Shown here: in pieces, positions 11,716 to 60,814 of the stretch
Position numbering within the stretch: position 1 is the stretch's first letter
Layout of the letters: every line of letters begins with the position of its first letter
DNA from: a virus
Direction: 5' to 3' (one strand)
Length of the DNA stretch: 64,000 nucleotides
IMG/VR virus record: IMGVR_UViG_3300003324_000465
Span: 42,877 to 106,876 of that record
Position numbers and translations under genes: made by a program
The notes under the pieces: generated by a model
Databases searched by the model: none
Told to the model about the DNA's origin: nothing
The model's input: only the letters and a program-made list of their open reading frames with translations

Positions 11716-12583
11716 GTTGTAACCTCTTCCATGTATTAAACGGTAATGCGCTATTCACTACTATATCAAAACCTGTTTTACCATATGTAAGAATAAACTG
11801 GTCTATATCCATCTTTTTTTCACCAAACAAAGGTAAAGTTGCTATTTTAGGTCCGTCTAATTGCATAGCTGCTTTCTCAATAGCCGTTCTCAGCGAATGT
11901 ACATTTTTATTCTGTGAATCAAATAACAATATAATGTGTTGATTAGCTTGTTGTCTAAATCCCTGTTTCCAGATACCCATTCCTGGCAAGGCCATTGTAG
12001 GATAGCCTATTTGTACAGCAAGATCGGCTTTTATTTCACCTTCTGTTAGTATAATAATGTTTTCTCTATGCAGATGGTAATTATACGGATAATCAGCCCC
12101 GCGATAATATGCGCCATTGAATGGAGATTTATATTTTAAAGGATCATCCCTAATACTTCTACCACGAATATCTACAATTGTGGTATCATCATACATATAT
12201 GGAAATGTAACACGATCTGCTAAAAATGCCTCTCCATTCATAGATAAACCAGCTTCTATAGGTACTTGACCATTATAAAGCGGAGATTTGCCTTTAGGGC
12301 AATAACCTATCTTCAGATTCTTAATAGTTACATCATTTAATCCCCGCGCATATAAATATCCTAATGCTCGCTTATCCAATGAGCTATGATAATACAATGC
12401 TGCTTTGTTGTAAAAATGACGTATTTCATCTAAATACGGTGATCGTTCCTTTTTCTCTGACCTGTCTAATCCTTCTCTCAGGTAATAATTACATCCCGGA
12501 GAAAAGCAATAACTTAACCCATTCATAGGAGTAACATAAAGAGTTTCTTTGCCACATATCGGGCAAGCTGTTTTATAATTCAT
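11708..12583 (-). CDS. DNA primase (Zn finger plus TOPRIM)
   Basis: CPICG...CFSPGC, YLYARG, RVTFP, KYKSP, TEGEIKA, DIDQF; likely start MNYKT. Confidence 0.9.
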   Translation of the reverse strand: MNYKTACPICGKETLYVTPMNGLSYCFSPGCNYYLREGLDRSEKKERSPYLDEIRHFYNKAALYYHSSLDKRALGYLYARGLNDVTIKNLKIGYCPKGKSPLYNGQVPIEAGLSMNGEAFLADRVTFPYMYDDTTIVDIRGRSIRDDPLKYKSPFNGAYYRGADYPYNYHLHRENIIILTEGEIKADLAVQIGYPTMALPGMGIWKQGFRQQANQHIILLFDSQNKNVHSLRTAIEKAAMQLDGPKIATLPLFGEKKMDIDQFILTYGKTGFDIVVNSALPFNTWKRLQRV

Positions 12584-45709: not shown

Positions 45710-45781
45710 AGCGGCTGGTGTGGAAACCAAGAATGTCTCATAAGCAATCTAGCACAGGTTCAAATCCTGTAGCCGCTACCA
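45710..45781 (+). tRNA. tRNA-Met(CAT), reduced D arm
   Basis: AGCGGCT/AGCCGCT acceptor, CTCATAA loop, GGTTCAAATCC, ACCA; weak anticodon stem. Confidence 0.65.
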
Positions 45782-45857
45782 CAGTAACGTTTAATCATTA
45801 CGACGTTACGCTACAAAATAAACAGTTTGGTGCATACGAGAAACGGAATGCACACAT

Positions 45858-45936
45858 GGGATGCCATGGTGTCGATTAGGCGTAAAAACCAAAGTGAGCG
45901 CTTAACATGCGAGTTCGAGTCTCGTGCATTCCACCA
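45858..45936 (+). ncRNA. tRNA-like RNA without a canonical anticodon loop
   Basis: GGGATGC/GCATTCC-ACCA acceptor and GCGAG-TTCGAGT-CTCGT T arm, but no 7-nt anticodon loop. Confidence 0.55.
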
Positions 45937-46133
45937 AAATATTTGACAAGTTCCATCAGTAAAAATACTGGCGCGCTTATTGATAACAGTTTACCGTATA
46001 AGATATATCTGAATACGGAACGTATGTTGCAAGCGTAATACATGCACTTCACATTGAGCAATTGCATGACGTGAGATGTGATAGTATATGGACATGCAAA
46101 ATAATTGTGAATCACATTATAGAAAGGTATATA

Positions 46134-46328
46134 ATGTTTAATTGGTATATTGCAATTATAGTTTTCATTAGTTTTCTAAATTTACTTTACATCCCGTTTG
46201 ATCCTATTACTAAACGTTTAGCTTGGTGGGAAATTGTATTAAAATTTGTACTTGATGTACTAAGAGTAGCGGTTGTTTGGTCTATTATCTTTGCTTTTAT
46301 AAAGCTTATGATGTGGGTATTTTCTTGA
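46134..46328 (+). CDS. small membrane protein
   Basis: AAAGG SD before MFNWY; two hydrophobic segments. Confidence 0.55.
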   Translation: MFNWYIAIIVFISFLNLLYIPFDPITKRLAWWEIVLKFVLDVLRVAVVWSIIFAFIKLMMWVFS

Positions 46329-46335
46329 TGTATAT

Positions 46336-46420
46336 GCAAGTGTAGCGTAATTGGTAACGCATCACTCTGTAAAAGTGACACCTAAGGGCATTGTAGGTTC
46401 GAGTCCTATCACTTGCACCA
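46336..46420 (+). tRNA. tRNA-Tyr(GTA)
   Basis: Full cloverleaf, TCACT-CTGTAAA-AGTGA, long variable arm, CCA. Confidence 0.9.
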
Positions 46421-46685
46421 CTGATATAAAGTAAAACGGCTACAGAGTTATGTAGCACTTTATATCAAATCATTGGAATACTAGCTGCGAGTTACACGCG
46501 CCGTAACCTTGTATTCCATTTAATCAGCGCGGTTTGTACGTTAAACGGATAAGGAGTTAAAGGAAACGTACATGTAGGTTTGTGTCGTTTATAATAAAGC
46601 GTAGGAGAGTGCGTATGGATTATACTCGTTACTGATTTACATTTTATGCCGTGAATATTCTAGATAATTCCCGGCCCATTATTAT

Positions 46686-46759
46686 ACAGAATGAAGTGTA
46701 ATGGTAGCACCCGTATTTTGGGAATATGGAGAGCAGTTCGATTCTGACATTCTGTACCA
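46686..46759 (+). tRNA. tRNA-Pro(TGG)
   Basis: CGTAT-TTTGGGA-ATATG, GTTCGATTC, CCA; weak T stem. Confidence 0.8.
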
Positions 46760-46995
46760 TTAAATAACATAGGCTATGCCAGTGTGTACGCTTAAGCAAC
46801 AATGCTTCTCTGAATCAAGCACATGTGAGAAGATGTTATTTATATCAGTGAATATAATGTAAGCACTTATAAGAGTGATTCCTTATAAGATAGACGCGGG
46901 CAAAATATTCAAAAGACAAGATCATAATAGATTAAAATTTATTTCATCTCTATTGTTTATTACGGATAATATCAATCTATTATGATCATCATTAT

Positions 46996-47070
46996 GCGTC
47001 AATGATGTAATTGGTAGCATATTGCTCTCCAAAAGCAAGCGTTAGGGTTCAAATCCTTATTGACGTGCCA
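46996..47070 (+). tRNA. tRNA-Trp(CCA)
   Basis: TTGCT-CTCCAAA-AGCAA, CCA end. Confidence 0.9.
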
Positions 47071-47207
47071 TATATAATATAGCGGTTTATAGAATTACAA
47101 CGCTTACCAAACACCAAGCTATAATACGTTCGATTCGTATATGGGCTAATGGAAAACCTCTCGCAAGAGAACTGCCCACATATTCTATAAGATATTCGTA
47201 TTATATA
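47071..47207 (+). ncRNA. Y-RNA-like RNA 1
   Basis: Terminal stem, AGCGG, second stem, TACAACG, internal T-loop hairpin TACG-TTCGATT-CGTA, TATTC; upstream of Ro60. Confidence 0.75.
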
Positions 47208-47220
47208 AAACAAACACATA

Positions 47221-47331
47221 TACTGTAGCGGGAAAAATGCAATACAACGTTTATTTGATTAATAAAACACACTACGTTCAAATCGTACACTTGGGTTGGT
47301 TATCCCTTTTTGCTTTTTCATATTCACAGTA
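47221..47331 (+). ncRNA. Y-RNA-like RNA 2
   Basis: TACTGT/ACAGTA, AGCGG, TACAACG, T-loop TACG-TTCAAAT-CGTA, ATATTC. Confidence 0.75.
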
Positions 47332-47358
47332 ATTATAATATTTGCGGGCAATATTTAC

Positions 47359-47431
47359 GGAAACATGGTGTAAGCAGCATACATCTAGGAATAGATGAGG
47401 CGTAATGGGTTGGACTCCCACGTTTCCATCA
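47359..47431 (+). ncRNA. tRNA-like RNA with a GGAA-capped anticodon arm
   Basis: GGAAAC/GTTTCC acceptor, CATCTA-GGAA-TAGATG, TGGG-TTGGACT-CCCA. Confidence 0.5.
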
Positions 47432-47436
47432 CATAC

Positions 47437-47564
47437 AATACTATGTAGCGGAAAAATCCTTTACAACGAATAACATATGCCTTGTTAATGTGGTGATACA
47501 CGTAAAAATATTCTGCGATGCGCTACAGTTACGCATTATAGGATTTTTATATTCGCATAGCATT
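47437..47564 (+). ncRNA. Y-RNA-like RNA 3
   Basis: CTATGT/GCATAG, AGCGG, AAAAATCCT/AGGATTTTT, TACAACG, ATATTC. Confidence 0.75.
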
Positions 47565-47630
47565 CAAAAGAAAAAAAAACATTATTAAATGGTTTTATCG
47601 ACTTGCCAAATACAAGTATAATATTTAATT

Positions 47631-47768
47631 TTCTGTAGCGGATGTCAGCGATTACAACGCATTACGAGCGGGTGATTGTAGGTTCGAGTCCTACTGTCTG
47701 TACCATGTATACAGACATAGCTTAATGGCAAAGCACCTAAAATATATCGCGGGCAATTATTCACAGAA
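47631..47768 (+). ncRNA. Y-RNA-like RNA 4 (YrlA-like, permuted tRNA domain)
   Basis: TTCTGT/ACAGAA, AGCGG, TACAACG; T arm, then acceptor stem, then D arm. Confidence 0.85.
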
Positions 47769-47781
47769 GAACAATGATAAT

Positions 47782-47869
47782 AAGCTGCTACAGCGGAAAT
47801 ACAAGTACAACGAATATTTTTAGACAAAATTAACCGTAAACACCTTGTATTTAATATCCGTAGCAGCTT
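47782..47869 (+). ncRNA. Y-RNA-like RNA 5 (minimal)
   Basis: AAGCTGCTAC/GTAGCAGCTT, AGCGG, AAATACAAG/CTTGTATTT, TACAACG, ATATCC; followed by a T-run. Confidence 0.75.
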
Positions 47870-48155
47870 TTTTTATGATTCATCAGCCAAGTATTCAAGA
47901 AAGGATTTTTTATGCTAGATTTTTTTAAAGCAACAGAAGAAAATGGTTTGCGTTTTACTTCATGATGGTGATTATATGTGGATAACTGAAAACGAAGCAT
48001 TTTCAGGACAGCCTATTATTGCTACTGCAGTAATGTATAGGAATCATCCCTTAAGTGATTGGCAATTTGATGAAGAAAGTATCGATATACTAGATTCTAA
48101 GTATACTAAATAATTCGCGGGCAATTTATAAACCGTAGCAAAGGAATAAAATAAC

Positions 48156-49712
48156 ATGAGAAAAAATTTAACACAGGGATCAAAGAAAACAGTCAGTACA
48201 AAGCCGGTGGCACCAGTAGCCATGGGAGTAGCTCATAATCCTAATTATCGGTCAACACCAGTATCTTCATTTGAAGGCAATACTAACTATAAGCTTGATC
48301 CAATTGCAACATTGAAACTGGTAACTGCAAGTTCATTTTTTGGTGAGCCTTCTTTTTATGAAGGAAATACACGTACAGCGTTATTTGAACAGACAATTGA
48401 CGCGGCCCTTGATTATGATTTTTATGCGACACTTGATTGGGCTGGTGTATTACGTAATGCGTATTATATGCGCCTTAATCCTCAAATCATCATGACAAGA
48501 GCAGCAGTGCATCCAAAGCGTGGTGAGTTTACAAAACAATATCCCGGCGCATTTAATACATTTATGGAAATTGTTGCGAAAAGACCGGATGATCTTACTG
48601 CACAGGTAGAATATTACTTGTCAAAGTTTGAAGATCGTAAGGTTCATGGGGTTAAAGCCTCTCGTATGCCTGGAATTATGAAGCGTTCAATAGCACACCG
48701 TCTTGAGCAATTTAATCGTTATCAAATGGCGAAATATGCTAATCGTGGTATCGGTTTAATTGATATAGTTCGTTTAACACATGCTCATGGAGCATTAATT
48801 AACGAACTTATGAAAACTGGCGGAATTAGTATCGATGAGGAAGACCAAACATGGCGTACTATGCGTAGCGCTGGTAAGTCATGGACAGAGATTATTAATT
48901 CAGGCATCACACTAACACACCAAGATATACTTTTTCAAATGCGTTCTATTTTTGATTCTGTTAAGGGTGATACTGCTCAATATATTGCGGGCAAATTTCT
49001 TAATGGGGTCAAGAATGGTAAAATGTTCCCATATCAGTATTATATTGCTTTTCAGCAATTGAGTGAGGATACATTCAGTAATAAGATACTAGCGTTAGAT
49101 ACACTTCAAGAAGCCCTTGATATGTCTATTCGAGAACAGCCAAAATTAGGCGGAAGTGTTGCGGTTGTGGCAGATAATAGCGGATCTATGAATAATCCAC
49201 TTAAAGTAGACGGTCATCAAGTTACAGCAGCGGAAGTAGCTAATTTATCTGCAATTATGACAGCCTACAATGCTACTGATGGAGATGTATTCTCGTTTGG
49301 TACCACGTTAGCAAAGTTATCATATAGCAAGCGTGATGGTATAATGACAAATGCAAAACGGCTTGCTGATTTATCTACTGGATGGGGCACAAATATGGGA
49401 TTGTTCTGGCAATACGCTATACAACATAAAAAGAGTTATGATACCGTATTTGTATATAGTGATATGCAAGCTCTACCTGTTTCTGGATACGGTTATAACA
49501 ACGAAGTAAGAAACATGTATGACATTGTGAACGAATATCGCCGCAAGCTAAATCCAAAGGTAAATGTTTTCTACGTGCAAGTAGCAGGCTATGATAATAG
49601 TGTACAACCAGATAATACATATCGTGCAACTAACCTGTCTGGATGGACAGGTAAAGAGGTTATGTATGCTGCTGCTGTAAATGCTGTGTGGGATGAAGTA
49701 GATAGTAAATAA
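48156..49712 (+). CDS. Ro60/TROVE domain RNA-binding protein with vWA domain
   Basis: SFFGEPSFY, YYMRLNP, RPDDL, YQMAKY, DIVRLTH, FPYQY, vWA MIDAS ADNSGSM, GTN, YSDMQ, LSGW. Confidence 0.92.
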   Translation: MRKNLTQGSKKTVSTKPVAPVAMGVAHNPNYRSTPVSSFEGNTNYKLDPIATLKLVTASSFFGEPSFYEGNTRTALFEQTIDAALDYDFYATLDWAGVLRNAYYMRLNPQIIMTRAAVHPKRGEFTKQYPGAFNTFMEIVAKRPDDLTAQVEYYLSKFEDRKVHGVKASRMPGIMKRSIAHRLEQFNRYQMAKYANRGIGLIDIVRLTHAHGALINELMKTGGISIDEEDQTWRTMRSAGKSWTEIINSGITLTHQDILFQMRSIFDSVKGDTAQYIAGKFLNGVKNGKMFPYQYYIAFQQLSEDTFSNKILALDTLQEALDMSIREQPKLGGSVAVVADNSGSMNNPLKVDGHQVTAAEVANLSAIMTAYNATDGDVFSFGTTLAKLSYSKRDGIMTNAKRLADLSTGWGTNMGLFWQYAIQHKKSYDTVFVYSDMQALPVSGYGYNNEVRNMYDIVNEYRRKLNPKVNVFYVQVAGYDNSVQPDNTYRATNLSGWTGKEVMYAAAVNAVWDEVDSK

Positions 49713-49755
49713 AGGATAAAGGCGCGCAGAGATAATATCAAAGCGCGTTTTATAA

Positions 49756-49830
49756 TGCAGAATCAGCTAATAGGTAGGTTGGTACTCTCTGAAAGTGCCT
49801 GTACAGGTTCGAGTCCTGTTTCTGTAACCA
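49756..49830 (+). tRNA. tRNA-Gln(CTG)
   Basis: GTACT-CTCTGAA-AGTGC, GGTTCGAGTCC, CCA. Confidence 0.8.
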
Positions 49831-49841
49831 AAGGAATTTTT

Positions 49842-50081
49842 ATGAAACATTATATTTTGTTGTTACATACTTCTATACCTAGATATTTTGCGGGCGAGTT
49901 TATTTATAGTGATTTAGTAGATGGTACAACATTTGTAGAAATAGAATGGACAAAACAAATGTCCATGGCTACACCTATGACATATGAGGAAGTCAATCAA
50001 TTAAAAACATGGTGTGATCAGTATCGAAGCGAGTTTACACAAATACTAGATACATCTCTGGAAATTATAATGCAGCCGTAG
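49842..50081 (+). CDS. hypothetical protein
   Basis: AAGGA SD before MKHYIL; the ORF-track start overlaps the tRNA. Confidence 0.6.
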   Translation: MKHYILLLHTSIPRYFAGEFIYSDLVDGTTFVEIEWTKQMSMATPMTYEEVNQLKTWCDQYRSEFTQILDTSLEIIMQP

Positions 50082-50090
50082 AATATCTCT

Positions 50091-50177
50091 ATAACGTCAC
50101 CAGCGCCTTCCTAAGAGGCGATAGGATCAAAGTGGTATCTTGGTATGGGTAGAATATCCTGAGCCTTCTGGTGAAAA
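50091..50177. repeat. dispersed inverted-repeat-bounded element, copy 4 (inverted)
   Basis: Reverse complement TTTTCACCAGAAGG...CTGGTGACGTTA aligns with the ends of copy 1. Confidence 0.65.
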
Positions 50178-50203
50178 ATAATAGCAGAAATATTCATAAA
50201 AAT

Positions 50204-50270
50204 CTTAACTAAATCTTAACGAAAATTGCCCAAATTGCCTATTGACTCCGGTCCATGGGCGTGGTAATAT
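50204..50270 (+). promoter_or_regulatory. sigma-70 promoter with upstream CTTAAC direct repeats
   Basis: TTGACT(50242)-N17-TAATAT with extended TG; CTTAAC at 50204 and 50215. Confidence 0.75.
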
Positions 50271-50326
50271 ACACACATAAGAAATGACGACGGCGGAACA
50301 AGCGATAACAGACAGGAGAAAACAAA

Positions 50327-50419
50327 ATGAAAACTATTGTTCGCACTCCGAAGGGTAGCGCTCGTGTTGGTCCTATGACCGCTAAGTATCTGAAGTATAT
50401 CCAATACAGCGGCGCGTAG
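50327..50419 (+). CDS. 30-aa basic peptide
   Basis: AGGAG SD, MKTIVRTPKGSARVGPMTAKYLKYIQYSGA, hairpin at the stop. Confidence 0.55.
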   Translation: MKTIVRTPKGSARVGPMTAKYLKYIQYSGA

Positions 50420-50432
50420 TAATCTACGCCGT

Positions 50433-50962
50433 ATCTCTCACTAGTATGTTTTCCTAGTGCAGTATAGTGAGATGTATCTAAACTAGGACGCGGAATAAAT
50501 GAATCGTAACAATTGCGAAACTGATAGCTAATTGCTTAGGCAAGCGGTGACGCAGATAGGTGTTACGTGGAGTTGTTAACTACTAATCAATGAAGCTGTA
50601 GGCAACATGCGTTATGTGGAGATTAGAATAATAGCTAACAGCGAAAGAGCAACAAGAGTCGCAAGCTCCGTGCTGTGGATTTGCTGCACAGCGTTAACAT
50701 GCAGAATGGGTACAATAGGTTATGAAATGTTTCTATTGTATGGCTCTGCAATAACATTTCCCGCGTTGTATTAAACTCGCTATTTGACGTACACGCGGTT
50801 ATAATAATAGTGATGGTACTCTGCCCATTTAGAGCCTTACCTTTAAGCTGTAAGCGTAAGTAATCAGCAGAGAGACAGCTATTGACAAATGCTCATGTAC
50901 GCTACTATAAAAATGGATGACACCACAGTAAAATACAGAGTGTAGCTTAGAGTTTGTCAATA
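50433..50962 (+). ncRNA. candidate large structured ncRNA (family unassigned)
   Basis: ORF-free 530 nt with nested stems, e.g. ACGCGG(AAT)AAATG/CATTTCCCGCGT and TATTGACAAA/TTTGTCAATA. Confidence 0.45.
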
Positions 50963-51026
50963 TTGCGAGCAATTATTTGTAAAGTGTACGTTACTGTGTG
51001 CTGTATCTCTCAAAGGATGAATATAT

Positions 51027-51103
51027 GCCCGTATAGCCAAACTGGATGAAGGCACATGTCTACGAAACATGTAATGTGGGTTCGAGTCCTGCTACGGGTG
51101 CCA
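51027..51103 (+). tRNA. tRNA-Arg(ACG)
   Basis: CATGT-CTACGAA-ACATG, CCA. Confidence 0.9.
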
Positions 51104-51248
51104 ATTGATACAATACTATCATCATATTTCTCTATGCGGCCAATAGAGCCAAAAAGATATTTATTATCTTTTCCATAAACCATAAAAAAATGAATAGGTT
51201 TCATCATGTCAGTGATTATTCTGATTTATTAGAAGCATTAAATTTTGT

Positions 51249-51326
51249 GCCGTAATAGCAAAAGCTGGCTTTGCAGGGGCCTTTTAAGCCTTTTAAACGC
51301 GGGTTCGATTCCTGCTTACGGCACCA
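51249..51326 (+). tRNA. tRNA-Lys(TTT)
   Basis: GGGGC-CTTTTAA-GCCTT, CCA. Confidence 0.85.
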
Positions 51327-51436
51327 CTCATCCATGGAGTTTATCAATCATTTGTACATGGAGTAGTTATAAAAATAGTTGACTTCTATAATAATGCCCC
51401 GCAGATTATTATAGTCGTAATTACTTAGCGGGATAT

Positions 51437-51512
51437 GCCAGATTAACCTTATGTGGTAAAGGTTCTGTTTGAAGCACAGAAATAACGTGTTCGAGTCACG
51501 TATCTGGCACCA
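51437..51512 (+). tRNA. tRNA-Phe(GAA)
   Basis: TCTGT-TTGAAGC-ACAGA, CCA. Confidence 0.88.
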
Positions 51513-51647
51513 CGGAAGGCAATTATTTGTTATATCAAAATATACTGTCTGATCAACGGTATATGGAGATATGGCGGTATCTGATCAATATAGCGCATAG
51601 TTCTAGCGTAATGCTAGAATATATGGCAAATAAACCTTCAGTATTAT

Positions 51648-51723
51648 ACCAGTATAGCACAATTGGTAGTGTAGCAAGCTGTTAACTTGTATTGTCTAGG
51701 TTCGATTCCTAGTGCTGGTGCCA
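51648..51723 (+). tRNA. tRNA-Asn(GTT)
   Basis: GCAAG-CTGTTAA-CTTGT, CCA. Confidence 0.9.
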
Positions 51724-52045
51724 ATAATAGTATTGTTGATACATTTGAAAGTATAGTGGGCGGCTGAATATAAAGGCTTATCGTGTGAAAATAACGATAG
51801 CAATACTATTTTTATATACTGGTATACAAAATTGGTGATGTATATGTATAGTAAATTTATTCTACTGTTTCGGCGGAAGCATTACTTGTAACATGAATAA
51901 AGCCAGTATTTAATAACATAAATAATAATATGCTATCATTGTCCAAATGGAGATAATTGCTTTATATATGCTCTAAAAAGTGTATTTGTGCAGTGTTGAC
52001 ACGTTGAATAATTCGCGGGCAATTTATAAAAAAAGGATGTATGTT

Positions 52046-52312
52046 ATGAGATTGTATGATTTTATATTGTTACATGGAGATATTGAAGATTACATCGATT
52101 TTGGCTATAGCCTTAATAGTAATAGTAGTATAGAAGAGCGTGTAAATTATATTTTGGAACGATCTAAGTTTCAGAGTCTACTTAATACACTAGAATTATT
52201 AGCTTCGTTAAACACAACAAATGAAGTTGAACGTAGTTTATTGCTCGCGTCATATTCAAAGACAATTACATTAAAATCTATTTGCATAAAGTTTGGATGG
52301 ACTCTGAAATAA
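52046..52312 (+). CDS. hypothetical protein
   Basis: AAGGA SD upstream of MRLYDF. Confidence 0.55.
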   Translation: MRLYDFILLHGDIEDYIDFGYSLNSNSSIEERVNYILERSKFQSLLNTLELLASLNTTNEVERSLLLASYSKTITLKSICIKFGWTLK

Positions 52313-52341
52313 TAATCCGCGAATTATGAGAGGATATTGCT

Positions 52342-52512
52342 ATGTTAGATAAAGCAATTAAACACGGTAAAGAAAAACGTAAACCATATCGTAAATCTAA
52401 GGCATTTGATAAGTCTTGTCGTAATCATGGATATTGCCCATACTGCCGTAATAATAGACTTTTTAAGAATAAAATGCGCGCACTTATTACAAAAGATGAT
52501 ATAGAGGAATAA
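52342..52512 (+). CDS. small basic Cys/His phage protein
   Basis: Hand translation MLDKAIKHGKEKRKPYRKSKAFDKSCRNHGYCPYCRNNRL; GAGG SD; below the ORF-track cut-off. Confidence 0.7.
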   Translation: MLDKAIKHGKEKRKPYRKSKAFDKSCRNHGYCPYCRNNRLFKNKMRALITKDDIEE

Positions 52513-52515
52513 ATT

Positions 52516-52701
52516 ATGGTGATGGAAACAATGCTTATACATTATGGAGTTAGAGGGACTATTAAACTGTTAATAGCTGCATGCTGGAAAAAACATGAAC
52601 ATTACAAACCCCTAGAATCAGTGTTTTCGATATGGGCTAAAATACTTGAAAAGCACTTAGACTTAATGTATGAAGAATATCAAGAAAAGTTTAATCTTTA
52701 A
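52516..52701 (+). CDS. hypothetical protein, paralog A
   Basis: Closely similar to 52749..52931. Confidence 0.65.
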   Translation: MVMETMLIHYGVRGTIKLLIAACWKKHEHYKPLESVFSIWAKILEKHLDLMYEEYQEKFNL

Positions 52702-52748
52702 ATAAAATATGTGTACTTATTACAAAAGATGATATAGGATAATAGATA

Positions 52749-52931
52749 ATGGAAAACATGCTTATACAACATGGAGTTAAAGGAGTTATTAGATTACTTA
52801 TTATTGCTTGCTGGAAGCGACATGAACACTATGTGCCGCGTGAATCTGTCTTTTCTATATGGGCACGTGTATTAGAAAAATATATCGATCTTATAGAGCA
52901 AGAAGCTAAAGAAGGTATTAAGAACTTATAA
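52749..52931 (+). CDS. hypothetical protein, paralog B
   Basis: Shares ACWK.HEHY.P.ESVFSIWA..LEK with paralog A. Confidence 0.65.
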   Translation: MENMLIQHGVKGVIRLLIIACWKRHEHYVPRESVFSIWARVLEKYIDLIEQEAKEGIKNL

Positions 52932-52932
52932 T

Positions 52933-53006
52933 GCTACCATCGTCTAAAGGTAAGACTCTTCTCTGATATAGAAGGTATTGCAGTTCAAATCTGTATGGTA
53001 GTACCA
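52933..53006 (+). tRNA. tRNA-Ile(GAT)
   Basis: CTTCT-CTGATAT-AGAAG, CCA. Confidence 0.85.
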
Positions 53007-53120
53007 TGAGCGAGCTAGATATGTTGAAGTGGAGCATACTATAGTTTATGCATATTGACATGTGTGTAAACTTGATATATTTATATGTCAGCGTGAATAT
53101 ATTGCCCGCGAATTATATAT

Positions 53121-53194
53121 GCGTCTTTCGTATAATGGAAGTACAATAGTTTCTCAAATTATAAATAGCAGTTCAATTCTGCTAAGACGTACCA
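53121..53194 (+). tRNA. tRNA-Glu(CTC)
   Basis: ATAGT-TTCTCAA-ATTAT, CCA. Confidence 0.85.
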
Positions 53195-53588
53195 TTATTA
53201 TATAGGTTGAGCAAAGAATAAATATTTGCTGAAAACACCTAGATGTAAGTTGCATAAGGATTTCCAATAAATGATTTTTACTTATGTGTAATTGGAATAC
53301 AGTGCTCAATTGCTCGAATACGTGACTCGTCAAATCGTATAAGAGTAATATGACGCCTATAGTATTGACGATTGCTATAGGTTTGAGAAGTCTTACACAT
53401 CCTATATAATAGACCATGGCTAGTTTTGTATCCTCTGGCATTTAAATGAAAAGGGATACGTATAAGAGCACATAATAATGCGCGGCGATTATTATAGGAT
53501 TATATGACGTAAATACATCATCTATGATCGTGTATTTACGTAAGTGGCATAGCGTTAGCTTAGAGTATATAATTCGCGCTCTTTATAT

Positions 53589-53663
53589 GCGCTTGTAATG
53601 TAATTGGTAACATGTCAGTCTTCCAAACTGAAATTCAGAGTTCAAATCTCTGTAGGCGTACCA
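53589..53663 (+). tRNA. tRNA-Gly(TCC)
   Basis: TCAGT-CTTCCAA-ACTGA, CCA. Confidence 0.88.
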
Positions 53664-53739
53664 GTATACTCATATAGGTCTTTTTTCTTATTGTTAATCG
53701 ACTGTAGCGATATGATTTCTCAGCTTGTATGTGTATCAT

Positions 53740-53814
53740 GCTCCCTTCGTACAAAGGCTAGTACAAAAGTTTTACATACTTTTAATGGCAGTTCGATTCT
53801 GTCAGGGAGTACCA
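53740..53814 (+). tRNA. tRNA-Val(TAC)
   Basis: AAAGT-TTTACAT-ACTTT, CCA. Confidence 0.88.
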
Positions 53815-53967
53815 TAGCATCTGTATCTAGCTAGTACAGAAGTGAAGCCTTTCAAAGTACACGAAAGGAACGTATATTGATATATGAAGGTGTTACGCCT
53901 ATTCGTAGCTAGTCCCTTGAAGGGGATTATAGTATAAGTAGTGAGTATGTCATATATCCTTATATAT

Positions 53968-54041
53968 GTCTCGTTAGCATAAAGGCCATGCACATATCTG
54001 CAAAATATGACATATCAGTTCAATTCTGATACGAGACTCCA
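53968..54041 (+). tRNA. tRNA-Cys(GCA)
   Basis: CATAT-CTGCAAA-ATATG, U73, CCA. Confidence 0.9.
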
Positions 54042-54081
54042 ATAAATAAAATGCGGGCAGTTTATTATGAAAGGAAACAGT

Positions 54082-54324
54082 ATGTACACGTTCAAAACAA
54101 TAGATGGTAAGGAGATTAAAATTCGTGATGTTATTGCTTATAACTCACGACGCGGTTTAGCTGTTGCTAAAGTTGTAGGATTTGTATATAAGCTAGATAG
54201 CTACAATAATAAGACTGTATCAACAATGCAAGTGCGTAGAATGAATAAATATCCTGATACAAAGCTTGCTTATTCAAAAACATCTCTTACAACTAAAGCG
54301 CAATGTGTTATCTTGGAAAGCTAA
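54082..54324 (+). CDS. hypothetical protein
   Basis: AAGGA SD before MYTFK. Confidence 0.6.
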   Translation: MYTFKTIDGKEIKIRDVIAYNSRRGLAVAKVVGFVYKLDSYNNKTVSTMQVRRMNKYPDTKLAYSKTSLTTKAQCVILES

Positions 54325-54369
54325 ATTCATTATTGCTGTCTATTATGCTTATAGTGCTAGGAAACGAAT

Positions 54370-54711
54370 ATGAAAGCGTTTATAGAATTACTTAATCCTA
54401 AAAATAACCAGAGAAAGAAGTTTGAAATAGATGTTATTGCTGAGAGCAAAGGACTAATATTACACAAGCGTGCATCAATAGATCATGAGGGTAACGTATA
54501 TTATCCTGAAAGGCAAGGCTATGTTATTTCCCATAGTGCTACAGGATGGTTTCTTATTATGAATAAAACATTGAAAAGTATTAAAGCGACTTTTCATGTA
54601 TTATCAGAGTTACCTATAGATTGGTCATTAGAAAGACCGCTAAATAATTTGCCCGTAGATATACGTCAAAAAATAGCAGAAATACGATCAAAATTTCATA
54701 CACAAATATAA
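54370..54711 (+). CDS. hypothetical protein
   Basis: AGGA SD, 113 aa. Confidence 0.6.
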   Translation: MKAFIELLNPKNNQRKKFEIDVIAESKGLILHKRASIDHEGNVYYPERQGYVISHSATGWFLIMNKTLKSIKATFHVLSELPIDWSLERPLNNLPVDIRQKIAEIRSKFHTQI

Positions 54712-54724
54712 TATAATATACTAT

Positions 54725-54889
54725 GTCCTTATAGCATAGAGGTAATGCACATATCCTACAGCGATGTAGATGCAAGATATGGTCATATTTGAGAGTAGAT
54801 GCTAACGTGTGAGTAAGTGATCATAATGTTCAGCGTATGCAGTATGGTAGATAATATGCAGAGGGTTCAAGTCCCTTTTAAGGACTCCA
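54725..54889 (+). ncRNA. 165-nt tRNA-Cys-derived RNA with two insertions
   Basis: GTCCTTA/TAAGGAC-T-CCA acceptor, D arm, CATAT..GCAAG.ATATG, T arm; extra hairpin in the anticodon loop and about 80 nt in the variable region. Confidence 0.7.
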
Positions 54890-55307
54890 CTTCGGTTTTT
54901 ACCGAAACTATGTATATAGTTTAAGTAGCATTGTTCTATATACATAGAAAAACCATGCTTCAAGTTGCTGGATTTCTCTAAACCAGTAGTAATCTAGTTG
55001 AAGGTATCCTATAAACCTTATCGTAAACATCTAAGCGTTAGTATGATGTAAGTTGTAAATGTATAAACTCAAATTTACAAGCACATATATAGTTTTATCA
55101 AACCGTTCTATATGTGTGTTAAAACGGAACCGTTGCTTACTTACGTAAATGTATGACATTGCGGGAGCAATCAAAATATCCGCTGTTCTGAGCTTGCAGA
55201 AGGTTTTATTGCATTTATATCCTTAATAGATTGCACGCGAAAATCTAAGCGTAATAAGAGATGTAAGTTAGTGGGTATGATAAACTGAAACCTACTCTTT
55301 ATAATAC

Positions 55308-55379
55308 GGGCGCAATTTATTAGTAGAATGCACATAGTAACTCTATGAGGCGACGGTGCGAATCCGTATGTGTCCACCA
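55308..55379 (+). ncRNA. tRNA-like RNA with a 5-nt anticodon loop
   Basis: GGGCGCA/TGTGTCC-ACCA, CATAG-TAACT-CTATG, ACGG-TGCGAAT-CCGT. Confidence 0.55.
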
Positions 55380-55829
55380 AAGCATGGTAATACATGCTCA
55401 CAGTATAATAACGGCGGCATTGAATGAGTTCTAGCATAAAGGATAGGATGCCTTTATGGTATAGATAAATAAGATATGACCAGCTAGTAAAGAAGGTGTT
55501 ATACTGTTTGAAGCCGGTTATAGTTGCAACCTTTATGTATCTTTTAGTCAAAGCCAGTGGTTATAGCATTGCTTTATGAGACTGGATAACGTTAATAGCG
55601 TTGAAGTGAGCATGCAACAGAAAAAGACAATATACATAAAGATAATCGGCGGGGGTAAAATATCAGGGACAAGTATTATATCTGGACAGATACATGCCGG
55701 ATATATGGGAGACATTAGGATGCTGAACGGCCTAATTACCTGATATAGTTGTATGCACTTTATCACTGTATGCGTCAAAGTGATATATAATCTGCGCGCA
55801 GTTTATTAGCTGCTATAAAGCAGATATAT

Positions 55830-55907
55830 GCGTATCTACTCCAATAAGGTAGAGAGAACTGTTTCAAAAACAGTAAAGTATCGGTTCGAGTCCGTTGATA
55901 CGTACCA
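55830..55907 (+). tRNA. tRNA-Leu(CAA), short variable loop
   Basis: ACTGT-TTCAAAA-ACAGT, CCA. Confidence 0.85.
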
Positions 55908-55930
55908 AAATCATTATATAAGAGGTAAAT

Positions 55931-56119
55931 ATGTTTATTATCTATGGTCGTTATAATGAAAATGCTACATATACTGATAATTTTATGTGGGATTTATCAG
56001 AAGCAAAAGAATATGTGAACAAAATTGCATGTGAAAATGAGCATAAAAATGTAATCCAGTATGAAGTACATGATAGTGATGGCTTACAATATGCAGTAAG
56101 AGCTGGTGAATGTAAATAA
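55931..56119 (+). CDS. hypothetical protein
   Basis: GAGG SD. Confidence 0.6.
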   Translation: MFIIYGRYNENATYTDNFMWDLSEAKEYVNKIACENEHKNVIQYEVHDSDGLQYAVRAGECK

Positions 56120-56125
56120 CTATAT

Positions 56126-56200
56126 GCCCTATTTCGTCTAATGTAGGACATCAGCAGTGAGAAAGCTGAAAACGCTGGACAAATCCAGCTATGGGCACCA
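56126..56200 (+). ncRNA. tRNA-like RNA with a 9-nt anticodon loop
   Basis: GCCC/GGGC-ACCA, GTCT/GGAC D arm, TCAGC-AGTGAGAAA-GCTGA, T loop lacks TTC. Confidence 0.55.
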
Positions 56201-56330
56201 TTGTGTTATGTATAAAATTAGCTATGCAAAACGTGTTATTTCTATGTGAAGCACTACTATAATCATAGAAACCAGCGCTGATGCCGCTTATATCTATGTA
56301 GTACGGATATAAGACATAACACTAAATTAT

Positions 56331-56408
56331 GCACGTATAGCCCAATTAGGTAGAGGCAACACGTTTAGACCGTGTATAGTGTAGGTTCGAGTCCTATTAC
56401 GTGTACCA
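56331..56408 (+). tRNA. tRNA-Leu(TAG), short variable loop
   Basis: ACACG-TTTAGAC-CGTGT, CCA. Confidence 0.88.
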
Positions 56409-56709
56409 GTATAGTTGTATAAAATTGCTTATGTATCCGTATGTCCACTAAACTAATGTGTGCTGATAGGGTTTAGTCTATGCGGTGCGGCGCGTACAGT
56501 ACACAGCACACTGTTACGACAACTATATAAAGATATTCCCTAAAAATATTCTATAAGCAATTATGGGTATCAGAATACCAGATTGCAAAATTCATCAATT
56601 CTGAGCCTTCCTGTAAAATAGGCATTATTTTATACAGCATTACAAAGCCGTAAAATAATCAAAGAAATAATATAAAAATAAAGCAGGCTTATAGAAAACT
56701 GATAAAAAT

Positions 56710-56754
56710 CTTAACCAATTTTCTATGGACAACCTACGGAAAGCATGCTATACT
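56710..56754 (+). promoter_or_regulatory. sigma-70 promoter with upstream CTTAAC box
   Basis: TGGACA(56726)-N17-TATACT with extended TG; spacer resembles that of the 45618 promoter. Confidence 0.65.
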
Positions 56755-56875
56755 GCTCTCAAATAATTCGCGGGCGCTTATTAAGAAATGATAATACGAT
56801 GGATGTGACATGGCTTTTTGTAGGATTAGGTATTGTGTTTTTGTCTTGGATAGATTGAAGAAGGATAAATAAGTT

Positions 56876-57112
56876 ATGATTGTTGTTATTGACGATGTTA
56901 ATGGATATTGGAAAAAAGAAAAAGGATGGTCTGTTAATTTGACTGATGCCGCTACTTTTTCTTCTTCTACTAATATTCCAGAAAATTTAATCAATATTTG
57001 GCGCGCATCGTATAATTCTAATGTGTATGTGCTTCCTATTGAAGCTGCAAAACCAGATTCAAAAGATGTAGATTTATCGTTAGCTACATACATACATAAA
57101 ATACAAATTTAA
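56876..57112 (+). CDS. hypothetical protein
   Basis: AAGGA SD; GWSVNLTDAATF resembles motifs in 62472.. and 63207.. Confidence 0.55.
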   Translation: MIVVIDDVNGYWKKEKGWSVNLTDAATFSSSTNIPENLINIWRASYNSNVYVLPIEAAKPDSKDVDLSLATYIHKIQI

Positions 57113-57179
57113 TCCTTTGTGTATAGATAGCATCATTATGATATGATATACTATTTGTACTGTAGTGAAAAGGATTACC

Positions 57180-57611
57180 ATGCTAGGGAAACAAATAGAT
57201 CAAAATACAGCATGTACACTTATAGCTTTGGATGATATGTTTGAAGCTACGGGTATTCAATGGGGTCAAGATTTTCTTGAGGATTATTTCTTAGAACAGG
57301 GTAACATCGGCTTTGATATAAAACATTTTTATCTTATTGAAGAAAGCGCACCAATTAAACTTTTTCAGAGTGCTGGCGGTGATTTTACATCTATGTGGTA
57401 TCAAGGTGATCTATATTGGACTTTGATAGATAACAATACAGGTATAAGATACAGAATAGGTAAGAACACTAAAATTGTACTTACTTATAAAGATAAATTA
57501 ATTGTGCATTCTGTATGTATTCCTGCACATACCGTAAATAACTATTTAAATCATTTTGAATTTGTTGCTTTATTCTTACCGTTATATGGTTTAATCGTAG
57601 ATAATATATAA
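57180..57611 (+). CDS. hypothetical protein
   Basis: AAGGA SD before MLGKQ. Confidence 0.6.
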   Translation: MLGKQIDQNTACTLIALDDMFEATGIQWGQDFLEDYFLEQGNIGFDIKHFYLIEESAPIKLFQSAGGDFTSMWYQGDLYWTLIDNNTGIRYRIGKNTKIVLTYKDKLIVHSVCIPAHTVNNYLNHFEFVALFLPLYGLIVDNI

Positions 57612-57637
57612 TCTGTGGGCGAATTATAAGAAAGGAT

Positions 57638-57829
57638 ATGTTTATGACGATGGAAGACTATGCAATTAAATCATTCAAAGTAGATCAACAAGAAGGTGAG
57701 TGGACTAAAGATATGCAATTCTACGATTTACCAGAAGAAGAAATTTATCTGTATTGGGAAGAAGCTTTAGCATACCTCAGATTACCTGAAGAGGAATGGA
57801 TAGATTTTGCTTTCTATGGAGTAGAATAA
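57638..57829 (+). CDS. small acidic protein
   Basis: Asp/Glu- and aromatic-rich 63 aa. Confidence 0.55.
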   Translation: MFMTMEDYAIKSFKVDQQEGEWTKDMQFYDLPEEEIYLYWEEALAYLRLPEEEWIDFAFYGVE

Positions 57830-57853
57830 ATAAACGGCGCGCAATTATTATAT

Positions 57854-57925
57854 GGGGTGTTAGTGATAATGGGAGCACGTAATACTTGCAATATTACAGA
57901 AACGGATCGTAACCGTTACACTCCA
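57854..57925 (+). tRNA. tRNA-Ala(TGC)
   Basis: G3.U70 pair, TAATA-CTTGCAA-TATTA; followed by CTA rather than CCA. Confidence 0.85.
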
Positions 57926-57944
57926 CTATTTAGAAAGGTGATAT

Positions 57945-58190
57945 ATGCTGGATGATGATTATATATACTATGCTGTAACTGTACTAGCTTATAATGTGCA
58001 TACAGGCGAAGTTGTTATAGGGACAACATGTGGTCGAAGCCCTAAAAATAATGTTTCTAAGTATGATAGAGAGGAATCATTACGACAATCTCTATTGAAA
58101 CACGCTAAAAAAGATTTTCCTGAACAGCATTTTTATGGACATAAAGTATTAATATGTGAAATACCAGAAGAAGGGTTTCAAGATTTATGA
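57945..58190 (+). CDS. hypothetical protein
   Basis: AAGGTG SD, coupled to the next ORF. Confidence 0.55.
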   Translation: MLDDDYIYYAVTVLAYNVHTGEVVIGTTCGRSPKNNVSKYDREESLRQSLLKHAKKDFPEQHFYGHKVLICEIPEEGFQDL

Positions 58191-58372
58191 AACACAATGC
58201 AATCGAGTCTATTTTTGCAGTTGATCAGCGTGTTAAAGTTATTAAAGGTGATTATTCAGGTAAAGAAGGCGTTATTCAGCGTTTAGGAGCAGCAGGATCA
58301 GTAATTTATGTACATGTCCTATTGGACGGTGCTATTACAGTTTTGACCTTTAGTGAAAGTCATTTAGAATGA
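58187..58372 (+). CDS. KOW-motif small protein
   Basis: DQRVKVIKGDYSGKEGVI. Confidence 0.6.
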   Translation: MKHNAIESIFAVDQRVKVIKGDYSGKEGVIQRLGAAGSVIYVHVLLDGAITVLTFSESHLE

Positions 58373-58560
58373 AAACTTATTTTGTACGTTTAATCGAATA
58401 CGAAGGTAAGAACAGGGTAATTAGAGAGGCTATTGAAATCTACGCGGATCACTATGATGTAGATGGTAACAATAATCTTATATTTTATGGTACACAGGAA
58501 GATAAGTCTACGTTTGTAATTATGTACCATTCATATAATTGGTTTTCTGTGGAATTATGA
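58369..58560 (+). CDS. hypothetical protein
   Basis: ATGA-coupled ORF. Confidence 0.55.
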   Translation: MKTYFVRLIEYEGKNRVIREAIEIYADHYDVDGNNNLIFYGTQEDKSTFVIMYHSYNWFSVEL

Positions 58561-58994
58561 TTAAAAAGTGTACTAAATGTGGTATTGAGAAAGCTGAATC
58601 TGAATTTAATTGGAGAAATAAATCAAAGGGTGTACGTCAATTTGCTTGTAGGGTGTGTACTAAATTAGAGGTAAATGCAACTAGGAAAGATTTGGATGGT
58701 AAAATTAAACCTAAATATTCATATCCTAGTAAAGTTAAAGAAAGAAAACGCCAGTTAAGATTATGGCTGCAAACTAAAAAGAAATCTCTATCTTGTATTA
58801 TTTGTGGATTTTCTCATCCAGCAGCATTAGATTTTCATCATCGCAACCCTAGTAATAAGACCATAGAAATAACAACAGCTATAGAACATGGATACTCGAT
58901 AAATAAGCTTGAAAAGGAAATAGCTAAATGTGATGTTCTTTGCTCTAATTGTCATAGAATATTACATTATAATGAACGCGGCGGTATCGTTTAA
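58557..58994 (+). CDS. HNH endonuclease
   Basis: KKCTKCG, CIICG..ALDFHH, EIAKCDVLCSNCHRILH. Confidence 0.9.
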   Translation: MIKKCTKCGIEKAESEFNWRNKSKGVRQFACRVCTKLEVNATRKDLDGKIKPKYSYPSKVKERKRQLRLWLQTKKKSLSCIICGFSHPAALDFHHRNPSNKTIEITTAIEHGYSINKLEKEIAKCDVLCSNCHRILHYNERGGIV

Positions 58995-59054
58995 TGGCAA
59001 GGACAATTGCCTTTCAAGCAATGAATTGGAGTTCGATTCTCCATACCGCTACCA
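58980..59054 (+). tRNA. tRNA-Glu(TTC)
   Basis: ATTGC-CTTTCAA-GCAAT, CCA; overlaps the HNH stop. Confidence 0.88.
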
Positions 59055-59316
59055 GTTATACATAAAGATTATTAAGCATGGGTAGATACATGTGTGTTTC
59101 TGTAGTGACCTTTACTATATCTAACATACAGGAAAGATAGTATTTATGTATATACATGCGCGCTATGTAATTAAGTCTTTTATATCTATAATGACTAGCT
59201 ACTAGCATGGCCCTGTAGATAATTCCGTAAGACATAGGCGGTGATACTCTACATGTTGGTTGTTTTTCTATATGAATGCTACATATAGAAAGGGTATAAA
59301 AGCCGCGCATTATTAT

Positions 59317-60690: not shown

Positions 60691-60814
60691 GATGCTATAA
60701 GTCTAACCGATAATGGACGTAATGTTTATTATAGGATGATCTCTATAATGGACTGTACGTAAAAAGACCGTTTGATCAATGGTCTCAATGAGCGTTCGAG
60801 TCGCTCTAGCATCT
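60691..60814 (+). ncRNA. elongated tRNA-like RNA (about 124 nt)
   Basis: GATGCTA/TAGCATC acceptor, GAGCG-TTCGAGT-CGCTC T arm, long anticodon-position hairpin and 8-bp variable arm. Confidence 0.65.

Follow-up and report, generated by a model that had tools for sequence, protein, structure and literature searches.

Helices set against tRNA 3' ends in the spacers of a phage tRNA array and their possible role in precursor trailers

The DNA analysed here (the window) comprises 64,000 nucleotides (nt), the final 64 kb of the 106,876-bp virus record IMGVR_UViG_3300003324_000465, whose source is a tailed phage with terminase, portal, DNA polymerase and ribonucleotide reductase genes. Between positions 45710 and 62454, it carries an array of 22 + strand tRNA genes, almost all of which encode their CCA end; small open reading frames (ORFs) and a gene for an HNH endonuclease are interspersed among them. 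The array region also contains the gene for a Ro60 homologue (48156-49712), with five Y-like modules upstream of it. A preliminary description of this locus proposed that the spacers between the tRNAs are filled with self-contained RNA units closed by terminal stems and listed eleven of them; these units and their closing stems are the subject of the present work.

Perfect Watson-Crick terminal stems exist at the listed coordinates in all 11 units. Taken in the order of the units, they measure 11, 10, 14, 10, 7, 8, 9, 9, 9, 10 and 7 base pairs (bp), such that the proposed range of 8-14 bp holds for all but the two that reach only 7 bp; the sixth stem has 8 bp when delimited as 53199-53408 and 11 bp when the bounds are set at 53196-53411. 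The stem-bearing DNA has a G+C content of 34%, and the closing arms, 67-100% A+T, all differ in sequence and show no consensus across units. Because AT-rich DNA makes stems cheap, as the preliminary description had itself cautioned, over half of the 9-bp stems that can be found in this region are expected by chance: between 45001 and 64000, 55 perfect inverted repeats of at least 9 bp with a span of 30-260 nt compare with 33 +/- 5 in block-wise dinucleotide shuffles of the same 19 kb. For stems of at least 10 bp, the corresponding numbers are 26 and 10, and stems of at least 14 bp were absent from every shuffle. Other 19-kb pieces of the genome likewise lie above their own shuffles, and the 7-bp stems of the units starting at 51816 and 59156 carry no weight alone. 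No unit has a usable U-tail, in agreement with the earlier remark that they do not resemble terminators. Terminator-like sites show no excess over shuffles (9 versus 7.5 +/- 2.9), and within the units they are confined to the inner stem of the hairpin at 46422 (one on each strand), a stem without a real U-tract. A scan for consensus promoters combined with terminators performed no better than on shuffles and was uninformative.

The stems are, however, placed non-randomly with respect to the tRNAs. A perfect helix of at least 9 bp starts 0-3 nt past the annotated 3' end of 7 of the 22 tRNAs, compared with 1.4% of background positions (binomial p = 1.8e-8), so that the notion of units often beginning a few nt after a CCA describes a feature that exceeds chance. 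These helices, 9-11 bp in length, follow tRNA-Tyr, tRNA-Pro, tRNA-Trp, tRNA-Asn, tRNA-Glu(CTC), tRNA-Leu(TAG) and tRNA-Glu(TTC), and an eighth case follows a tRNA-like element ending at 56200. The linker between CCA and stem measures 0-2 nt in all eight of them, and the partner arm lies 46-216 nt downstream. As the arms are TA-rich, the anchoring was retested with an arm-conditioned null, in which the arm is held constant while the DNA beyond it is shuffled with its dinucleotide content kept, a procedure adopted after the comparison of duplex energies with an all-positions background had proved too insensitive for AT-rich stems. Under this null, p is at most 0.05 for 6 of the 22 tRNAs (Fisher 2e-4). 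The same procedure was calibrated at random positions, where this level was reached in 3 of 70 instances (Fisher 0.65), and the tRNAs differed from these positions with a Mann-Whitney p of 0.001. The significant cases include imperfect stems behind tRNA-Gly and tRNA-Ala, the latter pairing into the next gene, and the stem behind tRNA-Met is marginal (p = 0.053). Immediately before tRNAs, the enrichment of stem ends is only weak (3 of 22, p = 0.03).

The folding of the spacers points to the same elements. Whole spacers fold better than their dinucleotide shuffles, with a mean z-score of -1.95 and 8 of 13 (62%) at or below -2, whereas length-matched coding segments reach a mean z of -0.34 (Mann-Whitney p = 4e-4); the energies thus exceed those of shuffled spacers, as the preliminary description would require. 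The difference is far weaker in 100-nt windows (mean z -0.82 versus -0.27), and, since the interiors of the units are also much weaker, the extra folding energy resides in the long-range closing stems. Scores for the units themselves, which range from -6.5 to -0.7, are biased because the units were picked for their terminal stem. Once the closing arms are removed, 8 of the 11 interiors behave like shuffles (z -0.6 to +1.4), which leaves the 46422 hairpin, 53199-53408 (z -2.8) and, less clearly, 59156-59310 (z -1.75) as exceptions; the view of the units as self-contained structures with internal hairpins does not stand. The apparent tiling of the spacers by closed units carries no information either, because the ends of shuffled spacers are paired just as fully at minimum energy (Fisher p = 0.8). 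The closing stem is part of the minimum-energy fold of its own spacer for 11 of 12 stems. The original observation is, overall, partly confirmed.

The units, all given here on the + strand, vary considerably in these respects. The hairpin at 46422-46467, located 1 nt past the CCA of tRNA-Tyr, consists of an 11-bp perfect outer and a 6-bp inner stem without a U-tail and has a z-score of -6.5 (0 of 200 shuffles as good), an arm-conditioned p of 0.007 and a pair probability of 0.98. The most structured spacer harbours a 216-nt domain (53196-53411), which begins 1 nt past the CCA of tRNA-Glu(CTC), is closed by the 11-bp stem mentioned above and shows a z of -3.9 (interior -2.8), an arm-conditioned p of 0.020 and a pair probability of 0.99; the whole spacer (53195-53588) has a z of -3.5, with 0 of 100 shuffles folding as well. 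An 85-nt segment behind tRNA-Asn (51726-51810), closed by a 10-bp stem 2 nt past the CCA, has a z of -2.0 to -2.5, an interior z of -0.3 and an arm-conditioned p of 0.013, with a pair probability of 0.45 in the spacer alone. It is followed by a 94-nt segment (51816-51909) whose 7-bp closing stem remains at chance level (z -1.1 to -1.2, pair probability 0.38). Here, the 5' end of tRNA-Asn (51645-51656) and the start of the second unit (51815-51826) form a 12-bp perfect complement, and this pairing rivals the claimed closing stems when the whole context is folded.

Two units flank tRNA-Leu(TAG). The first, a 120-nt segment (56203-56322), has a 9-bp stem that starts 2 nt past the CCA of the tRNA-like element at 56127-56200 and ends 8 nt before tRNA-Leu(TAG), with a z of -2.0, an interior z of -0.5, a pair probability of 0.61 and a duplex energy of -11.8 kcal/mol. 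The second, a 118-nt segment (56410-56527), has a 9-bp stem 1 nt past the CCA of that tRNA, with a z of -1.3, an interior z of -0.05, an arm-conditioned p of 0.026 and a pair probability of 0.92-0.97. An exact copy of TGTATAAAATT follows right behind the 5' arm of each (56209-56219 and 56416-56426), and a third, with one mismatch, lies on the opposite strand (56626-56636). We also considered that tRNA and trailer had been duplicated in tandem around 56120-56535 but rejected this, as homology of the arms was not established by alignment and no tandem repeat was found. The last of the anchored units on the list, a 96-nt segment (59057-59152) with a 10-bp stem 2 nt past the CCA of tRNA-Glu(TTC), shows a z of -2.1, an interior z of +0.1, an arm-conditioned p of 0.073 and a pair probability of 0.91-0.96.

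The stems behind tRNA-Pro and tRNA-Trp are the weaker ones. The former, a 10-bp AT-rich stem 1 nt past the CCA, closes an 82-nt segment (46761-46842) with a unit z of -0.7, an interior z of +1.4 and an arm-conditioned p of 0.18, and its pair probability falls from 0.88 when the spacer is folded by itself to 0.23 when the neighbouring tRNAs are folded with it. The latter, which was not part of the earlier list, is the 9-bp closing stem of the first Y-RNA-like module (47071-47207), which contains AGCGG...TACAACG; it sits directly on the CCA and has a pair probability of 0.97 but, because its arm is pure TA, is not significant by itself (arm-conditioned p = 0.53). Also outside that list is the Gly-to-Val spacer (53664-53739), which is closed over its entire length by an imperfect, G-U-containing stem (arm-conditioned p = 0.04) and is the sole spacer with a clear strand asymmetry, with a z of -3.5 for the + strand compared with +0.3 for the - strand. 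Among the stems that do not start at a tRNA 3' end, a 14-bp perfect stem with a 40-nt AT-rich loop (46920-46987) ends 8 nt before tRNA-Trp and has a z of about -3.6 to -4.0, an interior z of -0.5 and a pair probability of 0.99. A 155-nt segment (59156-59310) with a 7-bp G+C-rich stem ends 6 nt before tRNA-Asp (z -2.2, interior z -1.75, pair probability 0.69-0.86). The claimed 222-nt unit at 55393-55614, which has a 9-bp stem and no anchor at a tRNA end, is most likely a chance repeat: the pair probability of its closing stem is 0.00, the stem is missing from the minimum-energy fold and the interior z is -0.5.

Seven of the tRNAs have a different element at their 5' ends, a motif made up of an AT-rich part, a GC core (GCGGGC-like) and ATTATTAT, which we found at 46664-46686, 49740-49756, 51387-51436, 53096-53120, 53566-53588, 57825-57853 and 59295-59316. 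In these seven cases, it stops exactly at the tRNA 5' end or 1 nt short of it; it precedes protein genes as well, and its orientation is only weakly tied to that of the genes (20 forward and 7 reverse copies in a region of + strand genes). The motif may serve as an operator or as a promoter whose discriminator is G+C-rich. The 3' arm of the 59156-59310 segment sits in the copy at 59295-59316.

Structured spacers with a helix against the tRNA 3' end are a general tendency of phage tRNA arrays. We compared the window with 80 unrelated IMG/VR loci, each comprising a Ro60 gene with 10 kb on either side (L001-L080), which together contain 723 tRNAs, with at least 5 tRNAs in 47 of the loci; this frequent vicinity suggests that phage Ro60 is tied to the expression or clean-up of tRNA arrays. 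Among 400 non-redundant tRNAs from these loci with a downstream spacer of at least 30 nt, 6.5% are followed by a perfect stem of at least 9 bp starting 0-3 nt past the tRNA, compared with about 1.1% of background positions. As in the window, the stems are AT-rich and all different, and several of them end 3-12 nt before the next tRNA. The 70 ORF-free inter-tRNA spacers in this set have a mean z of -1.62. The phage studied here lies at the high end, with 32% of its tRNAs affected (p = 3.5e-4 relative to the control rate).

The collections searched contain no close relative of this phage. Megablast and blastn searches against a phage collection returned matches to tRNAs only; the closest Ro60 protein in the phage collection is that of phage G, at 39% identity, and the closest in 5.8 billion protein clusters has 53% identity. 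In four IMG/VR contigs whose terminases are about 55% identical, the tRNAs follow the order seen here in two stretches, Met-Tyr-Pro-Trp-Gln and, farther along, Leu(TAG)-Ala-Glu(TTC)-Asp. Order and content of the tRNAs differ among relatives. None of the 11 units was recognisable by blastn or nhmmer in the two nearest relatives, whereas the tRNAs still are, and the tRNA-like element (56128-56194) is kept at 81% identity in a relative with 55% terminase identity (nhmmer E = 3e-9). This element scores 27.5 bits, under the Rfam tRNA threshold, and has a CCA end in the window; the relative's copy (oriented contig G002, 11591-11660, from locus L085) ends in ACCG and is apparently followed by a putative ATG-led reading frame and not by a stem-closed unit. 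That the units are not recognisable in relatives argues, if weakly, against conserved, sequence-specific RNAs, the weakness lying in the fact that the Y-like modules and tRNA mimics were also not found there. Closing stems seen by eye after tRNA-Met and tRNA-Tyr in relatives were unsupported by a shuffle test and were dropped, a warning on reading stems visually. At about 12030-12150 of G002 (the reverse complement of L085), just before tRNA-Leu(TAG), lies another tRNA-like element, which ends in CCA and is followed 1 nt later by a 9-bp-closed unit with a T-arm-like hairpin, ACG-TTCGAAT-CGT; the same hairpin occurs in the first Y-like module of the window (47124-47140).

The best-supported reading of these findings is a model in which the stems would act in cis, as structure in the trailers and spacers of tRNA precursors, and would not represent separate RNA genes; we regard this as about an even call. 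About a third of the tRNAs would have the first bases of the spacer, 0-2 nt past the CCA, locked in an AT-rich helix of 9-11 bp, and the single-stranded stretch between acceptor stem and helix would be reduced to the discriminator, the CCA and one or two further bases. A host endonuclease would cut directly behind the CCA and leave a trailer short enough for exonuclease trimming, and the helix would, in addition, stop spacer and tRNA sequences from pairing with each other. Once excised, the spacer would be a by-product with both ends paired that may persist for a while, and the pattern can be explained without any function of it. The stems, their anchoring, the excess folding energy of whole spacers and the wider tendency among phage arrays are observed; read-through into the spacers, the nuclease with its cleavage site, and any effect on tRNA yield are inferred. 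The differing stem sequences and the absence of conservation in relatives fit a requirement for pairing only, and, as the stems abut the CCA, cuts made in tRNA processing would leave stem-closed pieces.

Processing of this kind has a precedent in Escherichia coli, in which RNase P and, less efficiently, RNase E remove hairpins situated 2-7 nt past the CCA in the valU, lysT and leuX transcripts, RNase PH or RNase T removes the one or two bases that remain, and long 3' trailers impede 5' processing by RNase P (PMC4176162). RNase P has also been found to cut model hairpin substrates at the base of the helix (PMC11143913). What the E. coli hairpins have in common with the eight anchored cases of the window is a helix within a few nt of an encoded CCA, at which removal by an endonuclease would leave a short trailer. 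However, they are G+C-rich Rho-independent terminators with U-tracts at the ends of operons, whereas the stems of the window are AT-rich, lack a U-tract, enclose 46-216 nt and lie inside the array. If anchored stems guide cutting, phage tRNA arrays would follow a simple design rule, a helix directly behind the CCA, which, if true, would be useful for annotating and engineering such arrays; apparently, this positional rule is undescribed in the literature that we searched. The window provides a statistically sound but modest example of it.

Several observations weigh against a cis-acting role. A stem that closes over 46-216 nt insulates poorly during transcription, as its 5' arm has no partner before the 3' arm is made. 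An anchored stem is present in only about a third of the tRNAs, and the two nearest relatives lie at the general control rate (anchored stems of at least 9 bp in 1/20 and 1/11), so that the stem is evidently non-essential. The arms are TA-rich, and two of the seven perfect stems, those behind tRNA-Pro and tRNA-Trp, are individually non-significant in the arm-conditioned test. Moreover, the fold z-scores show no strand asymmetry (-2.03 on the + strand and -1.87 on the - strand), which makes a cause at the DNA level possible. Finally, with a candidate promoter at seven tRNA 5' ends, many tRNAs may have a transcript of their own.

One alternative is that the stems reflect mostly chance and composition, with AT-rich, TA-rich tRNA flanks and repeated GC-core motifs giving rise to complementary words that serve no function but are bound to be noticed by anyone searching for closing stems. 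Much in the data is compatible with this idea, including the 33 of 55 stems expected in any case, the tendency of shuffled spacers to pair their ends too, unit z-scores that stem largely from the helix by which the unit was selected, the failure of 55393-55614 to form in the prediction, the 7-bp stems at chance level, of which that of 59156-59310 has a motif copy as its 3' arm, and the behaviour of the tRNA-Pro and tRNA-Trp stems just mentioned. However, the anchoring at tRNA 3' ends survives a dinucleotide null that holds the arm fixed and is calibrated at random positions, whole spacers outperform both shuffles and coding DNA, and an independent set of 80 other phage loci shows this enrichment as well. 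Chance and composition are therefore a rather unlikely explanation for the pattern as a whole.

Alternatively, the stem-closed pieces may be released and kept as trans-acting small RNAs, be it as decoys against tRNA-targeting defences, as sponges or as Ro60 ligands, as proposed in the preliminary description for a dozen or more unrelated RNAs, on the assumption of a single polycistronic transcript. Paired 5' and 3' ends would slow exonucleases, the 53196-53411 domain and the 46422 hairpin are well structured, and most of the 80 phage loci have their Ro60 gene amid tRNA arrays. The first Y-like module is built alike, its closing stem beginning immediately at the CCA of tRNA-Trp. A Ro60 gene accompanied by YrlA-like RNAs has been described for 22 phages (PMC4201824). 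The parallel with the YrlA RNAs encoded near Ro60/Rsr (PMC4201824; RF02553) extends to the long terminal stem that closes a variable interior and, at the level of the phage, to the combination of a Ro60 gene with five Y-like modules, the first of which starts on a CCA end. All five share AGCGG...TACAACG, a signature confined to 47081-47812, and one of them matches the Rfam YrlA model below threshold (47645-47756, 30 bits compared with a gathering score of 69 bits), which is the sole match to RF02553 between 45000 and 64000. The 11 units, by contrast, contain neither this signature nor the GNCGAAN0-1G motif (PMC4201824), have no T-arm or tRNA-like domain and match neither the YrlA covariance model nor, in an Rfam search at E up to 5, any other family, including ribozymes. 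Given that 8 of the 11 interiors fold no better than shuffles as well and that the folds show no strand asymmetry, the proposal of a dozen small RNAs is not borne out by these tests. Nor do the relatives lend it support, since the units were unrecognisable in the two nearest of them, while the tRNA-like element scores E = 3e-9 and, in G002, apparently precedes a putative reading frame in place of a unit. We consider trans-acting small RNAs unlikely; the earlier interpretation is partly supported, in that whole spacers fold better than shuffles and the stems abut CCA ends.

The tRNA cluster of phage T4 contains two non-tRNA stable RNAs of unknown function, species 1 and 2 (rnaC and rnaD), which are encoded among the phage tRNA genes, cut from the same precursors and found as stable molecules. 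The units of the window, in contrast, have no sequence relation to them, are predictions from DNA and mostly have interiors no more structured than expected by chance. Similarly, the 3' external transcribed spacer of the E. coli glyW-cysT-leuZ transcript is a by-product of tRNA-precursor processing with a function in trans, acting as a small-RNA sponge. It differs from the units of the window in that its activity rests on complementarity to known small RNAs. In a broader version of the same idea, phage arrays would serve as production lines from which host enzymes excise fast-evolving stem-closed RNAs that are kept for use, for instance as defence decoys or as partners in the Ro60/Y-RNA system. 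A third of this phage's tRNAs would then carry such a passenger RNA and, if the pieces were stable and functional, phage tRNA arrays would constitute a large hidden source of small RNAs, a scenario that we regard as distinctly unlikely.

It is also conceivable that the inverted repeats act as DNA, as boundaries of inserted or exchanged tRNA cassettes, protein-binding palindromes or promoter-linked elements. The equal fold z-scores on both strands are in line with such a role, as are the differences in tRNA order and content among relatives, the near-palindromic GC-core motif abutting seven tRNA 5' ends and the HNH homing-endonuclease gene within the array (58539-58994; PHROG 2255, E = 3.5e-33), which overlaps the start of tRNA-Glu(TTC) by 15 nt. 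However, the arms lack a consensus, so that no single recombinase or binding protein fits, and the tight CCA spacing exists on the 3' side of the tRNAs only, as would be expected of a signal in the transcript; in addition, the Gly-to-Val spacer needs G-U pairs on the + strand. A function as DNA is therefore quite improbable. An analogy with integron attC sites, in which each cassette carries a palindrome that is conserved in structure and variable in sequence, was dropped, since no R-box-like ends were present.

Least of all do the stems appear to be U-tract-less terminators or self-cleaving theta ribozymes of the hepatitis delta virus (HDV)-like type, a very improbable reading despite the location of both theta ribozymes and tRNA operon terminators right behind tRNA 3' ends, given that terminator-like sites are no commoner than in shuffles and no 3' arm has a good U-tract, that the search at E up to 5 gave no match to a ribozyme family (it did not include the theta descriptor), that HDV-like folds, which are nested double pseudoknots, start with G at the tRNA 3' end and pair their first 7 nt internally, whereas the units mostly start with T or A and pair their 5'-most with their 3'-most bases, and that theta ribozymes sit directly after phage tRNAs of which only 4.5% encode the CCA (PMC10879173), compared with nearly all of the tRNAs here.

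Some further features of the array deserve mention. The ORFs that overlap the units, on the minus strand or as small plus-strand frames, have no significant Pfam match. An ORF-free stretch of 600 nt before tRNA-Arg (50420-51026) matched none of the Rfam families, GOLLD and ROOL among them, at E up to 5, and its 100-nt windows fold no better than shuffles (mean z -0.47). T-arm-like hairpins occur outside the tRNAs at 45909, 47124, 47678, 54861 and 60790. ARAGORN calls no tRNA for the hairpins at 45909-45936, 54861-54890, 55352-55379 and 60790-60806. The first and third of these fit a T-arm followed by an acceptor strand and CCA; that at 54861-54890 is also CCA-ended, and at 60790-60806 the T-arm hairpin alone was examined. 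Finally, a 57-nt non-tRNA segment at 45983-46038 is 81% conserved in a relative (contig G001; locus L086, 6197-6253) and is probably a conserved promoter or leader; it carries TTGATA and a -10-like TAAGAT.

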